Shown: piece after piece, positions 19,042 to 25,688 of the stretch
How positions within the stretch are numbered: position 1 is the stretch's first letter
How the letters are laid out: each line of letters opens with the position of its first letter
IMG/VR virus record: IMGVR_UViG_2627853701_000015
Direction: 5' to 3' (one strand)
DNA length: 25,688 nt
Source: a virus
Lineage: Duplodnaviria; Heunggongvirae; Uroviricota; Caudoviricetes
Made by a program: the position numbers and the translations under genes
Notes under the pieces: model-generated
The model's input: the letters and a program-made list of their open reading frames with translations, nothing else
Told to the model about the DNA's origin: nothing
Database searches by the model: none

Positions 19042-19835
19042 TATTTAGCCCTCACCAGAAAGTTAAATGCAATATTTCGCGGTCTGACTGCAACAAAATT
19101 CACACCATCACCCACAGAGTTACTGGTGAAATTAAATCGTGAAAATCCTGGCTGATTTCCGGCGATGCCATCATGAAAGTTAATTGCGTGTCCCGCACCT
19201 TCGCCTATATTCCCGGCAAACTGAGAAAAGTTTGTAGCTGCCTGCCAGCTTAATAATTCGCGACCACCGTCTGCACCTCGCCCGTCATCCCAGATACGAA
19301 TGAAATCACCGCGGGCTTCAGGTAATACCAGCGAAGGAAACACTTTCGCCAGCACAGGATAATCAGTGGCAGAGAATTTCGCGCCGTTGAACTTCAAAAA
19401 CACCATACAGGACCAGCTGTCGATTACAGTATTTGGCATTGCAGCGGACGGCCAGAAGAACGGAACGCCAATAGCTGGAGCACCTTCTCCCAAACCAAGG
19501 TTTTGAAGAGCCGTTTTCACCGTGCCGTCCGATTTGATATCGCCAAACGGATTCTTGCGGCTCAGGTATTCAACAGCAAACCCCGATCCCAGCAATTCAA
19601 CAAAACCGGGCAGATCACCATTATCAAGCACATCCCGTTGCGTTTTATCACTTACAAACTGGGCCAGAGCTGCAGCAATAAAGCTGGCCTGCCGAATAAC
19701 CTTATTGACTTGCGCACTGGATGCTTTCCCTGCTGTAAATCCGGATATAAGCGCAGGCAACGCTTCCCATTCCTCCTGCGACATAACATTGGCATTTCGA
19801 TCAGTTGCAAACGCTTTAAAGTCATTTTTCGCCAT
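19041..19835 (-). CDS. side tail fibre protein, constant N-terminus joined to the currently expressed variable C-terminus
   Basis: 265 aa from 'MAKNDFKAF...'; the crossover site at 19485-19510 lies inside the gene, so the C-terminal ~150 aa belong to the invertible segment. Confidence 0.7.
19485..19510. repeat. invertase crossover site, right
   Basis: TTCTCCCAAACCAAGGTTTTGAAGAG; its reverse complement matches the site at 17627-17652 at ~21 of 26 positions. Confidence 0.65.
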
Positions 19836-20146
19836 CAGAGTAATACTCCCCATGCCCCTACATCAAAACCACTGATGAATTCGTTATCCATATCAAAACC
19901 AAAAAATTTAGAGCCTTCCGATGGAGTTTCCACCGAAGGTGTTTCAATGCCCCCCGCCCATACCCCGGCGGCTTTTACTGTTAGATACCCCTGTTTAATT
20001 GCCGCAATTAACTCACGCGATACATCTGAAATATCAGTATCAGGAAAGACCCAGACCGATATCGTCATGTCCTGGTTATCGATGTTGGCGATCCGACGCA
20101 TCTGCTCACGGTCAAAGTTAACCATCTGTGCGGCGATGTTTTTCAT
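19835..20146 (-). pseudogene. lambda P-type gene truncated after ~21 codons and fused to the 3' end of a tail-module gene
   Basis: 'MKNIAAQMVNFDREQMRRIAN' matches the lambda P N-terminus as I recall it, with ATGA overlap to O; the rest is unrelated and ends at the fibre start. Confidence 0.6.
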
Positions 20147-21042
20147 AAATCCACCCCGTAAATCCAGTCAGTGTTTGTCAGGTCGAGTTTTGGTTTGCTG
20201 GCTGTCACGCCTGCCTGTTGCTTGTTACGGTTGATTTCGAGCTGGGTCCACTTGTCGCGGAGTTTGGCCGGACTCAGCACGTTACCGGACCAGAAGTTGT
20301 CCTGGCAGGCCCAGCGGAAAAGCACACACATATCGCGGTGGTTACGTCCGTCACGTTCACGCATCAGGCGGATATCGTTAGCCCACCCAGCAAAATTCGG
20401 TTTTCTGGCTGATGGCGCGATGGTCTTCACCATGTCAAACATCCACTCTGCGGCGGTCAGGTCTTCTGCTGTTCCCCACTTGCTGCCGCTCTGAATTGCA
20501 GCATCCGGTTTAACCACAGAAAGATCGTTTTCTGGCTGGTCAGAGGATTCGCCAGAATTCTCGGACGAATAATCTTTTCTTTTTTCTTTTGTAATAGTGT
20601 CTTTTGTGTCCCCCTGTTTTGAGGGATAGCAATCCCCCAATTTGAGGGATGTTTTATCCCTCGTTTTAGGGGATTTTCCCTCGTTTTGAGGGATACACCA
20701 TTCTGAGATGTTTTTATTTGGTCCAAACATGCCGCCTTGCTGCTTGATAATATTCATTCTGACGAGTTCTAACTTGGCTTCATTGCACCGTTTGACAGGT
20801 AACTTTGTAATCTCGCTAAGTTGAGAATCGGTGATTCTGTCCATTGGTTTATTCCACCCATAGGTTTTACGCAGAATGGCAAGCAGCACTTTAAACTGTC
20901 GCTTGGTCAGATCTGCGCCCGAATAAGCCTCAAGCAGCATATTTGATAGTCTGGCGTAACCATCATCGAGATCTGCCACATTACGCTCCTGTCCGGCAAA
21001 GTTACCTCTGCCGAAGTTGAGTATTTTTGCTGTATTTGTCAT
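20143..21042 (-). CDS. O: lambda O-type replication initiator
   Basis: 299 aa 'MTNTAKILNFGRGNFAGQERNVADLDDGYARL...' matches lambda O as I recall it; the iteron array lies inside the gene. Confidence 0.9.
   Translation of the reverse strand: MTNTAKILNFGRGNFAGQERNVADLDDGYARLSNMLLEAYSGADLTKRQFKVLLAILRKTYGWNKPMDRITDSQLSEITKLPVKRCNEAKLELVRMNIIKQQGGMFGPNKNISEWCIPQNEGKSPKTRDKTSLKLGDCYPSKQGDTKDTITKEKRKDYSSENSGESSDQPENDLSVVKPDAAIQSGSKWGTAEDLTAAEWMFDMVKTIAPSARKPNFAGWANDIRLMRERDGRNHRDMCVLFRWACQDNFWSGNVLSPAKLRDKWTQLEINRNKQQAGVTASKPKLDLTNTDWIYGVDL
20608..20696. repeat. ori-lambda iterons
   Basis: Four ~19-bp repeats of TCCCTCnnnnTGAGGGA type with an adjacent AT-rich tract (20570-20605), inside O. Confidence 0.8.
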
Positions 21043-21074
21043 AATGACTCCTGTTGATAGATCCAGTAATGACC

Positions 21075-21368
21075 TCAGAACTCCATCTGGATTTGTTCAG
21101 AACGCTCGGTTGCCGCCGGGCGTTTTTTATTGGTGAGAATCGCAGCAACTTGTCGCGCCAATCGAGCCATGTCGTCGTCAACGACCCCCCATTCAAGAAC
21201 AGCAAGCAGCATTGAGAACTTTGGAATCCAGTCTCTCTTCCACCTGCTGATCTGCGACTTATCAACTCCCACAGCTTCCGCTGTCTTCTCAGTTCCAAGC
21301 ATTGCGATTTTGTTAAGCAACGCACTCTCGATTCGTAGAGCCTCGTTGCGTTTGTTTGCACGAACCAT
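21075..21368 (-). CDS. cII: CII transcriptional activator
   Basis: 'MVRANKRNEALRIESALLNKIAMLGTEKTAEAVGVDKSQISRWKRDWIPKF' matches lambda CII; start at the internal ATG. Confidence 0.9.
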   Translation of the reverse strand: MVRANKRNEALRIESALLNKIAMLGTEKTAEAVGVDKSQISRWKRDWIPKFSMLLAVLEWGVVDDDMARLARQVAAILTNKKRPAATERSEQIQMEF

Positions 21369-21486
21369 ATGTAAGTATTTCCTTAGATAACAATTGATTG
21401 AATGTATGCAAATAAATGCATACACCATAGGTGTGGTTTAATTGGATGCCCTTTTTCAGGGCTGGAATGTGTAAGAGCGGGGTTAT

Positions 21487-21687
21487 TTATGCTGTTGTTT
21501 TTTTGTTACTCGGGAAGGGCTTTACCTCTTCCGCATAAACGCTTCCATCAGCGTTTATAGTTAAAAAAATCTTTCGGCCTGCATGAATGGCCTTGTTGAT
21601 CGCGCTTTGATATACGCCGAGATCTTTAGCTGTCTTGGTTTGCCCAAAGCGCATTGCATAATCTTTCAGGGTTATGCGTTGTTCCAT
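21487..21687 (-). CDS. cro: Cro repressor
   Basis: 66 aa '[58 protein letters not shown]' matches lambda Cro. Confidence 0.9.
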
Positions 21688-21713
21688 ACAACCTCCTTAG
21701 TACATGCAACCAT

Positions 21714-24251: not shown

Positions 24252-24423
24252 GTTCACAGATAAAACACTCTCCAGGAAACCCGGGGCGGTTCATAACCAA
24301 TTGTATTTATTTTAAAATTAATAGGTGCAACTCACTAAACAACGCAATTCTGATCTCTCGATCACCTCCCAAGCCACACAACCCTGCAAAAAATAAATCT
24401 ATATAAAAAACATACAGATAACC

Positions 24424-24483
24424 ATCTGCGGTGATAAATTATCTCTGGCGGTGTTGACACAAATACCACTAGCGGTGATACTA
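24424..24483 (+). promoter_or_regulatory. OL3-OL2-OL1 operators and PL promoter
   Basis: CATCTGCGGTGATAAAT, TATCTCTGGCGGTGTTG, TACCACTAGCGGTGATA with TTGACA -35 and GATACT -10, matching the lambda PL region. Confidence 0.85.
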
Positions 24484-24521
24484 AGCACATCAGCAGGACG
24501 CACTAACCACCATGAAGGTGA

Positions 24522-24552
24522 TGCTCTTAAAAATTAAGCCCTGAAGAAGGGC
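24522..24552 (+). promoter_or_regulatory. nutL (boxA-like plus boxB hairpin)
   Basis: TGCTCTTAA then GCCCTGAAGAAGGGC hairpin between PL and the N start. Confidence 0.6.
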
Positions 24553-24709
24553 AGCATTCAAAGCAGAAGGCTTTGGTGTGTGTGATACGAAACGAAGCAT
24601 TGGCCGGAAGTGCGAATCCGGATTAGCAGCCAATGTGCCATTGCGGGGTGTTTTCGTTCAGGACTACGACTCCCACACACAACCAAAGCTAACTAACAGG
24701 AGAATCCAG

Positions 24710-24823
24710 ATGGATGCACAAACACGCCGCCGCGAACGTCGCGCAGAGAAACAGGCTCAATGGAAAGCAGATCGGATTCTGGCTTCAACATTTCGCAGGA
24801 ATGCAACTAAGAGACATTACTGA
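24710..24823 (+). pseudogene. N antiterminator truncated after 20 codons by a deletion junction
   Basis: '[20 protein letters not shown]' matches the lambda N N-terminus; from 24771 the DNA is integrase-derived and the N frame stops after 17 unrelated codons. Confidence 0.7.
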
Positions 24824-25688
24824 ATCAAAAATTTATTCAGCAATGCAGAAAATGACGAACCGGCGTCATGAGGAAAACTGGAAACTCAGGGCAGAAGCAT
24901 GCAGAAAAAAAGGGAAACCTGTTCCAGAATACACGCCAAAACCAGCGTCCGTTGCAACGAAGGCTACGCATCTTTCATTTATAAAGGCCCTGCTAAGAGC
25001 CGCAGAGCGTGAATGGAAAATGCTCGATAAGGCACCAATTATTAAAGTGCCTCAACCAAAGAATAAACGGATCCGCTGGCTGGAGCCCCATGAAGCACAA
25101 AGGCTGATTGATGAATGTCCGGAGCCATTAAAGTCTGTTGTTGAATTTGCACTGGCAACAGGCTTAAGACGCTCGAACATCATCAACCTTGAATGGCAAC
25201 AAATAGATATGCAGCGCCGGGTGGCATGGATAAACCCGGAAGAGAGTAAATCAAACCGCGCAATTGGCGTTGCGCTGAATGATACTGCATGTCGCGTATT
25301 GAAAAAACAAATCGGTAATCATCACCGTTGGGTATTTGTGTACAAGGAAAGCTGTACCAAACCAGACGGAACGAAAGCGCCAACAGTAAGGAAGATGCGG
25401 TATGACGCAAACACAGCCTGGAAAGCGGCGCTGAGACGGGCTGGTATTGATGATTTCAGATTTCACGACTTGAGACACACCTGGGCAAGTTGGCTGGTTC
25501 AAGCCGGAGTCCCGTTGTCAGTGTTACAGGAAATGGGAGGCTGGGAGTCTATCGAAATGGTTCGTCGATATGCTCACCTTGCACCTAATCACCTTACCGA
25601 ACACGCACGGCAAATAGACTCGATCCTGAACCCATCGGTCCCAAATTTGTCCCAGTCAAAAAATAAGGAAGGTACTAATGATGTGTAA
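24771..25688 (+). pseudogene. N-terminally deleted tyrosine integrase (DLP12 IntD-like), runs off the window end
   Basis: '[18 protein letters not shown]...' onward resembles a lambdoid integrase from about residue 85, with catalytic '[10 protein letters not shown]...MVRRYAHL'; no native start, offset +1 from the N' frame. Confidence 0.75.

Follow-up and report, generated by a model that had tools for sequence, protein, structure and literature searches.

Cryptic prophage Sp1 (CP-933H) at thrW of Escherichia coli O157:H7: a mosaic remnant with a lambda-type immunity and replication region

The viral DNA record IMGVR_UViG_2627853701_000015, a stretch of 25,688 nucleotides hereafter called the window, contains in its right part a set of genes and control sites of the phage lambda type, bounded on both sides by abrupt junctions with foreign phage DNA. 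With a probability of about 0.92, this region is the immunity and replication end of the cryptic prophage Sp1, also named CP-933H, which lies at thrW in Escherichia coli O157:H7, and which would derive from a mosaic phage by two large deletions that left a lambda-type switch in place. The genes and sites at the locus are described below, followed by the junctions that delimit them, the identity and extent of the element, its probable origin and its predicted behaviour.

Pairwise BLAST against the lambda reference (NC_001416) delimits two blocks of homology. Positions 20083-22508 of the window match lambda 39645-37219 with 98.2% identity, and positions 24292-24770 match lambda 35775-35300 with 92.3% identity. 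The first block comprises, on the minus strand, PR, cro, nutR with tR1, cII, O with ori and the first 64 nucleotides of P, together with cI on the plus strand; the second comprises OL3-OL1, PL, nutL and the first 61 nucleotides of N. A preliminary description of the same DNA, made from the sequence alone, had proposed that cI, OR, cro, cII, O with ori, OL/PL and nutL are arranged as in lambda and closely match it. BLAST and site mapping confirm this proposal, and the alignment to lambda, which had been named as the way to define the junctions, places them at 20082/20083 and 24770/24771.

The repressor gene cI (21788..22501, plus strand) encodes 237 amino acids, 233 of them identical to lambda cI (the substitutions being T3A, K71N, R129K and D139G), and its product is identical to the cI of phage ev099. 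It contains the Pfam domains HTH_3 and Peptidase_S24, that is, the helix-turn-helix and S24 self-cleavage domain by which a cI of lambda specificity is recognized. The other proteins of the region are even closer to their lambda counterparts: Cro (21487..21687, minus strand), likewise of lambda specificity, is identical over 66/66 residues, CII (21075..21368, minus strand) over 97/97 and the replication initiator O (20143..21042, minus strand), whose gene is intact, over 299/299. Within O lies ori, with four iterons (20610-20694) identical to those of lambda and an adjacent AT-rich region. The oop terminator (21099-21126, on the strand opposite cII) was recovered in a consensus scan, and the nutR and tR1 rut sites (21427..21479, minus strand) retain a boxB identical to that of lambda, with one change in rutB.

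Operators and promoters are also well preserved. OR1, OR2 and OR3 occupy positions 21714-21730, 21738-21754 and 21761-21777, with PR and PRM, and OL3, OL2 and OL1 positions 24420-24436, 24440-24456 and 24464-24480 on the plus strand. OR1, OR3, OL2 and OL3 are identical to lambda, so that four of the six operators are unchanged, and with the divergent PRM/PR pair and PL they form the tripartite operators typical of lambda immunity. Consensus scans find PR as TTGACT-17-GATAAT and PL (24454-24482, plus strand) as TTGACA-17-GATACT, both with intact hexamers, and the nutL boxB (24537..24553, plus strand) is identical to that of lambda. Each of the two remaining operators bears a single change: C10T in OL1, common to phages ev099 and SfI, and T9C at the central base of OR2, seen in the O157 element only, among the sequences compared. 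The spacer of PR carries two changes relative to lambda, one or two of which are specific to Sp1 among these same sequences. The idea that repressor and operators are intact is thus essentially right, with a full-length cI and lambda-identical copies of four operators, and needs amendment for the single-base variants in OL1 and OR2. The central-base change of OR2 and the PR spacer changes fall within 21733-21746, and the spacer also differs slightly between the window, the O157:H7 strain Sakai and strain 272.

In lambda, rexA and rexB lie between cI and OL. The corresponding position in the window is occupied by a truncated NYN-domain gene (22629..23012, plus strand) followed by an insertion sequence (IS), both of which the preliminary description had overlooked. 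The NYN gene retains 117 native codons (1-116 and the first junction residue) of 285; relative to ev099 it lacks 570 bp, and with them residues 158-205, which constitute the NYN profile match. It is full length (285 amino acids) in ev099 and in several E. coli strains, some of them avian. The insertion sequence is a complete IS629/IS1203 element of the IS3 family (22984..24293, plus strand; 1310 bp) with orfA/orfB and a frameshift pseudoknot (ALIL pseudoknot, 121 bits), the only Rfam match in positions 13500-25688. It is flanked on both sides by a TAA duplication and inserted right after the joint of the NYN deletion, 127 bp upstream of OL3, where it touches no operator. The endpoint of the NYN deletion lies 4 bp from the end of IS629, and IS629 was considered as the cause of the 570-bp loss. 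This explanation is rejected because the deletion is also found in the O157 genome AR-0427, whose sequence at this spot is exactly that of the window without the IS. Sakai does not offer a simple empty site, as a further 7 bp (GCCATAA) are missing there; this loss looks like the scar of an imprecise IS excision or an independent small deletion.

The left boundary of the first lambda block is a gene fusion. Identity to lambda ends abruptly after codon 21 of P, at 20082/20083, and the next 249 nucleotides belong to the 3′ end of a DUF2612 baseplate gene, 96.8% identical to that of phage vB_EcoM-606R2, in which the gene counts 226 codons and stands between a baseplate-J gene and a tail-fibre gene. 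The product is an in-frame open reading frame of 103 amino acids (19835..20146, minus strand), here called P′::DUF2612′, which joins lambda P codons 1-21 to the last 82 codons of the baseplate gene. The earlier proposal of a P cut after about 21 codons and joined to the 3′ end of a tail-module gene is therefore borne out.

The right boundary has a different outcome. The N′ open reading frame (24710..24823, plus strand) comprises 20 codons of N, followed beyond the junction at 24770/24771 by 17 out-of-frame codons read from integrase DNA. What is left of N is only its arginine-rich boxB-binding peptide (Pfam N36, residues 2-21). The integrase remnant int′ (24771..25688, plus strand) covers codons 83-387 of 387 and lacks the arm-binding N-terminus encoded by the first 82; it is identical to the SfI integrase at 304/305 residues, and its DNA is 98.7-99.6% identical to the integrase genes of the thrW-integrating Shigella phages SfIV, SfI, SfV and SfII. 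The truncation of N after 20 codons and its union near 24770 with a shortened integrase had been correctly perceived, with two adjustments: 82 rather than about 85 integrase codons are missing, and N′ is out of frame with int′.

The element to which this region belongs had not been recognized in the preliminary description as a named and annotated prophage. Over 8.7 kb, the window shares 99.7-99.9% identity with the thrW-proA locus of O157:H7 genomes. In Sakai, the interval 300042-310627, annotated as ‘prophage Sp1, lambda-like phage’, is collinear with the window at 99.7% over ~11 kb, apart from the IS629 and 23-bp polymorphisms discussed below. Its annotation lists an intD pseudogene, a ‘phage early gene regulator’, CI, Cro, CII, the O and P pseudogenes, tail-fibre genes and pinE, and both its gene content and its P′ and N′/int′ junctions are those of the window. 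Sp1 of Sakai corresponds to CP-933H (O-island 8) of EDL933; it is inserted at thrW, adjacent to proA, and forms a tandem with the P4-like Sp2 prophage, its neighbour in the window as well. The attR core of Sp1 (13819..13865), a 47-nucleotide copy identical to the 3′ end of thrW in Sakai, marks the boundary with Sp2 and belongs to a 97-nucleotide match (96.9%) to the attP arm and core of SfI. The second copy of the core is found at thrW, which lies ~15 bp past the right end of the window.

The remnant had initially been assigned to positions 19835-25688. All the elements listed for this span are found at or near their proposed positions, and the prophage itself reaches further left, to the attR core. 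The lambda-type part makes up no more than the right half of Sp1; positions 13866-19834 form the left half. No head, tail-shaft, lysis, recombination, terminase, xis, P, Q or intact int gene appears in the gene map from attR to thrW, which agrees with the earlier view that the head, most of the tail, lysis, recombination, xis and a functional int are missing. Measured against a complete inducible lambdoid prophage, Sp1 falls short in each module: the integrase lacks codons 1-82 and there is no xis open reading frame; O and ori are intact, with P reduced to 21 codons; and N is reduced to 20 codons, with Q and the lysis, terminase, head and tail-shaft genes absent between attR and thrW.

The deletion reading of the two junctions can be weighed against two others by means of their distribution. 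For this purpose, 300-bp probes centred on each junction were searched against 5426 complete E. coli genomes, in preference to an 8.7-kb probe, whose count is a lower bound. The P′ junction is contiguous in 203 of these genomes and the N′ junction in 214, while about 3100 other genomes (P′ probe) and about 1570 (N′ probe) give half-matches only, which break exactly at the junction position. Among the contiguous matches listed, the genomes are O157:H7 or of O157 size. One alternative, named in advance as the outcome that would overturn the preliminary description, is that P′ and N′ are full-length unrelated genes that merely resemble lambda P and N at their N-termini, without any deletion; it could draw on the uninterrupted 103-amino-acid frame of the P′ fusion and on the fact that PGAP calls both pieces ‘phage replication protein’. 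It is contradicted by the breaks in DNA identity to lambda at 20083 and 24770, by the downstream DNA, which is 97-99% identical to the 3′ parts of the 226-amino-acid DUF2612 gene and the 387-amino-acid integrase of SfI (likewise SfIV and SfV), and by the entry of N′ into int DNA out of frame, with a stop after 17 codons. The other alternative takes the junctions for assembly chimeras produced by collapsed repeats among the lambdoid prophages of O157:H7. An O157:H7 genome does hold some 20 copies of IS629 and many lambdoid prophages that are nearly identical, both known to confuse assemblies, and at least 20-30 places per genome match the 8.7-kb probe. Against it, more than 200 genomes finished independently of one another, including Sakai, TW14359 and EC4115, have the same junctions at 100% identity and at a single chromosomal position. 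The one-sided probe matches that break at the junctions rule out both the unrelated-gene and the artefact scenarios, to which we attach practically no probability.

Sp1 can be compared with several known systems. With Sakai Sp1 and EDL933 CP-933H, the window shares the thrW-proA site, the gene order, both deletion junctions and the att core; Sakai Sp1 differs in lacking IS629 and 7 bp present in the window and in carrying a 23-bp iteron duplication that frameshifts O, and the window has one extra change in the PR spacer. Lambda has the same order of N, nutL, PL/OL, cI, OR/PRM/PR, cro, nutR, cII, O/ori and P, whereas Sp1 has the truncated NYN gene and IS629 in place of rexA/rexB, and what lies left of N and right of P in lambda is absent or foreign. 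The closest relative with an intact immunity region is Escherichia phage ev099 (Radostvirus), which is 99.5% identical over window positions 20083-22983 and shares the cI protein, the OL1 variant and an NYN gene in the rex position; it is a complete phage, with full-length N, P and NYN (285 amino acids), late genes and a lambda-type OR2. The thrW integrase and attP core link Sp1 to SfI, SfIV, SfV and SfII, and int′ together with the duplicated att core places it among elements that integrate in the SfI/SfV manner. These Shigella phages are complete, with gtr genes for O-antigen modification beside attP; in that location Sp1 has an AraC-family regulator, a gene of the PD-T4-3 type and a Pin tail-fibre cassette. 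No gtrA-gtrB-gtr(type) cluster was found between attR and pin, an interval that contains the AraC regulator, an IS fragment and a GIY-YIG gene. SfI, which combines lambda-type cI, cro, cII, O and P with a contractile tail, has the body plan inferred for the ancestor.

A further parallel is offered by e14 of E. coli K-12, another defective lambdoid/myovirus mosaic. It too has kept a repressor paired with cro, genes for baseplate and tail fibres, a segment invertible by Pin and, at its end, a defence gene. The pin gene and crossover sites of e14 and Sp1 are 92-93% identical, and the tfa regions 90%. The e14 gene ymfN (oweE′::aaaE′), in which an internal deletion fused a replication protein to a terminase, parallels P′::DUF2612′ of Sp1. 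Unlike Sp1, e14 is inserted in icd rather than thrW, is of another immunity type, has intact int and xis and carries mcrA and lit instead of PD-T4-3 as defence cargo.

These comparisons suggest a plausible history. The ancestor would have been a mosaic temperate phage of ~40 kb of the SfI/SfV/ev099 kind, as judged from its closest intact relatives, in which the thrW integrase known from the Shigella serotype-converting phages was combined with a lambda-immunity early region and with a contractile tail bearing a Pin-invertible fibre cassette. The map of SfI runs from the thrW int through xis, the PL operon, N, the immunity region, O, P, nin, Q, lysis, head, contractile tail and tail fibre to attP. 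On such a map, a first deletion would have extended from int codon 82 to N codon 20, a span of about 5.7 kb in SfI that takes in the 5′ end of int, xis and the entire PL operon. The second deletion, from P codon 21 to DUF2612 codon 145, would correspond to about 23 kb in SfI and have removed P, nin, Q, the lysis and head genes and the greater part of the tail genes. About three quarters of the phage genome would have disappeared through these two internal deletions. Both would be illegitimate events: the P′/DUF2612′ join has zero microhomology and the N′/int′ join a single shared base, a G, and with none or one base of this kind there is no sign of IS-mediated or homologous recombination. Later events would be the loss of 570 bp from the NYN gene downstream of cI and the insertion of IS629 at the same spot. 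The retained parts are 97-99.6% identical to living phages, indicating little decay beyond the deletions.

The behaviour of the element has been studied in related strains. Sp1 of Sakai neither circularises, nor replicates, nor is packaged (PMC2669165), in keeping with the preliminary view of a prophage locked in place. Mitomycin C clearly induces its otherwise quiet early genes, an effect whose significance the authors called unknown (PMC2669165), and the tail-fibre genes Z0314 and Z0316 of CP-933H in EDL933 are among the most strongly antibiotic-induced genes (PMC4048457). It was also considered whether the Sp1 ori fires in situ with O and P of other prophages; there is no amplification in Sakai, whose own O is frameshifted, and in strains with an intact O, like that of the window, such firing may still occur.

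The lambda-type repressor switch of Sp1 probably still works. In the mechanism proposed, cI made from PRM would hold PR and PL shut until DNA damage, when RecA-stimulated self-cleavage of cI would open both promoters. The PR transcript, once past the leaky rho-dependent tR1, would run through cro, cII, O and P′::DUF2612′ into the tail-fibre and assembly genes. What would bring these genes within reach of PR is the second deletion, by which all DNA from P codon 21 up to the baseplate gene was lost. Along the minus strand from PR to the tail-fibre genes, no intrinsic terminator-like site was found. Read-through of this kind after cI cleavage would explain how genes of Sp1 and CP-933H are induced by mitomycin C and antibiotics without DNA amplification.

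The opposite view holds that the remnant is wholly inert, with cI and its promoters decaying as pseudogenic DNA and persisting only because the deletions are recent. The changes specific to Sp1 in OR2 and the PR spacer could be read in this way, as could the 23-bp duplication that frameshifts O in Sakai and probably in most O157 genomes, the dead, IS-bearing NYN gene and the absence of ECs0272-0280 from lineage II O157 strains, which makes the region dispensable (PMC1890555). Yet the amino acid sequences of Cro, CII and O are those of lambda, and that of cI matches an isolated phage exactly; the early genes stay quiet until mitomycin C is added, the tail-fibre genes respond to antibiotics, and such induction is what a working RecA-sensitive repressor acting on PR is expected to produce. 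Complete inertness is therefore highly improbable. Several points nevertheless weigh against the overall reading of Sp1 as a twice-deleted remnant with a retained switch. The OR2 central-base change and the PR spacer changes, found only in Sp1 among the sequences compared, may affect the predicted switch; N is non-functional, so that read-through beyond tR1 would depend on natural leakiness or on other prophages; the behavioural data come from Sakai and EDL933, from which the strain of the window differs by IS629 and an intact O; a literature search found no experimental test of lambda immunity conferred by the Sp1 cI in O157; and neither the precise parent nor which large deletion came first can be traced.

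A retained switch has consequences for other phages. From its sequence and that of its operators, the cI of Sp1 would be expected to repress incoming phages with lambda operators, such as lambda, HK97, SfI, ev099 and similar phages, which is a sound inference. The element would thereby probably confer immunity to phages of the lambda-immunity type, as first proposed, and the mitomycin C induction of Sp1 early genes in Sakai lends this indirect support. Full-length matches to cI and OR occur in 36 phage records, including lambda, HK97, HK106, HK542, HK544, mEp234, mEp332, SfI, ev099 and ev243. Shiga toxin (Stx) phages share only the C-terminal half of the repressor and would not be excluded; Rex-type exclusion is not expected either, with rexAB absent and its NYN replacement dead. 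The C-terminal domain of the Sp1 cI (encoded by 22079-22501) is identical at 133/140 residues to that of the repressor of the Stx2 phage VT2-Sakai (Sp5), the DNA-binding domains being different, and with C-terminal domains so nearly identical, mixed dimers could form. It is conceivable, though very unlikely, that the Sp1 cI acts in trans on co-resident prophages through such dimers, in addition to exerting control over the complete tail-fibre, assembly and invertase cassette through an SOS-inducible PR. If so, each repressor would be titrated in mixed dimers, and the Shiga-toxin prophage would be induced at a different threshold.

Sp1 is also variable within O157:H7. IS629 is present with its TAA duplication in the window, AR-0427 has a precise empty site, and Sakai-type genomes lack both the IS and the additional 7 bp (window 22977-24296). 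In Sakai, a 23-bp duplication of one iteron unit, at window position 20618 (iteron 4, inside O), causes the frameshift of O; the window, like strains 272 and Rafaela_II, does not have it and encodes an O protein identical to that of lambda. Slightly longer matches suggest that most other O157 genomes carry the duplication. On a larger scale, microarray data assign ECs0272-0280, which run from N′ to the tail fibre, to every strain of lineages I and I/II, and to none of lineage II (PMC1890555).

The left half of Sp1 contains cargo genes and a tail-fibre switch. An AraC-family regulator (14620..15363, minus strand; Pfam HTH_AraC/HTH_18) is probably PatE (z0321/ECs0287), an assignment drawn from gene order and secondary citations only; according to such citations, PatE is an acid-resistance activator and repressor of LEE genes (locus of enterocyte effacement) encoded by CP-933H/OI-8. 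The IS fragment between attR and pin is of the IS3 family. The GIY-YIG nuclease gene (16136..16960, plus strand; Pfam LEM-3_GIY-YIG) is assigned by PADLOC, at full length, to PD-T4-3 (E 2.3e-140) and lies beside pin, in the position where e14 has mcrA.

The preliminary description had missed that the tail part is a myovirus module of the e14/SfV type with a Pin-invertible segment. The DNA invertase gene pin (17018..17572, minus strand; Pfam Resolvase and HTH_7; pinE according to PGAP) is 92.6% identical to pinE of e14. Next to it, the invertible tail-fibre segment (17634..19503) is delimited by 20-nucleotide inverted crossover sites (17634-17653 and 19484-19503) that are 95% complementary and 1830 nucleotides apart. 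An alternative tail-fibre C-terminus (17599-18012, plus strand; of the Pfam Gp53-like_C/Caudo_TAP set of the segment) and two tail-fibre assembly genes homologous to the tfa genes of e14 (18024-18476, plus strand; 18448-19041, minus strand) are held in it. In the tail-fibre gene itself (19041..19835, minus strand; named as such by PGAP and the Sakai annotation), the constant N-terminal part lies outside the segment and the current C-terminal part inside. This gene is 96.8% identical to the side tail fibre gene of vB_EcoM-606R2, a phage with a full DUF2612, tail-fibre, assembly and invertase module. A serine invertase beside inverted crossover sites, with alternative C-termini and assembly genes, is the hallmark of a Gin/Pin/Cin-type switch, known from e14, Mu and P1, and the segment looks intact.

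Beyond attR, positions 1017-13819 of the window correspond to the P4-like prophage Sp2, whose genes include a primase-helicase, genes resembling Icd, Psu and Ogr/Delta, and an ‘ABC-three component system’ set. At 1017-1042 a degenerate att copy delimits Sp2 on its far side, and its integrase gene (12569-13708, minus strand) has an in-frame deletion of 93 bp (31 codons) at 13231/13232 compared with Sakai and strain 272.

As a discovery, Sp1/CP-933H is of little importance, for it is already known as a named, annotated and partly characterised cryptic prophage. It has reportedly been annotated since the O157:H7 genome papers of 2001, and its defects and behaviour are said to have been described in 2009. 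The IS629 insertion and the 23-bp iteron duplication, being polymorphic in O157:H7, could serve as lineage markers. For the Sp1 and CP-933H transcripts published as ‘SOS-induced’, PR read-through across the P′ junction would be the simplest account. Above all, Sp1 offers a tidy example of prophage fixation, in which deletions would have abolished mobility and spared the repressor switch and the cargo genes, namely the AraC regulator, the PD-T4-3 gene and the Pin switch.

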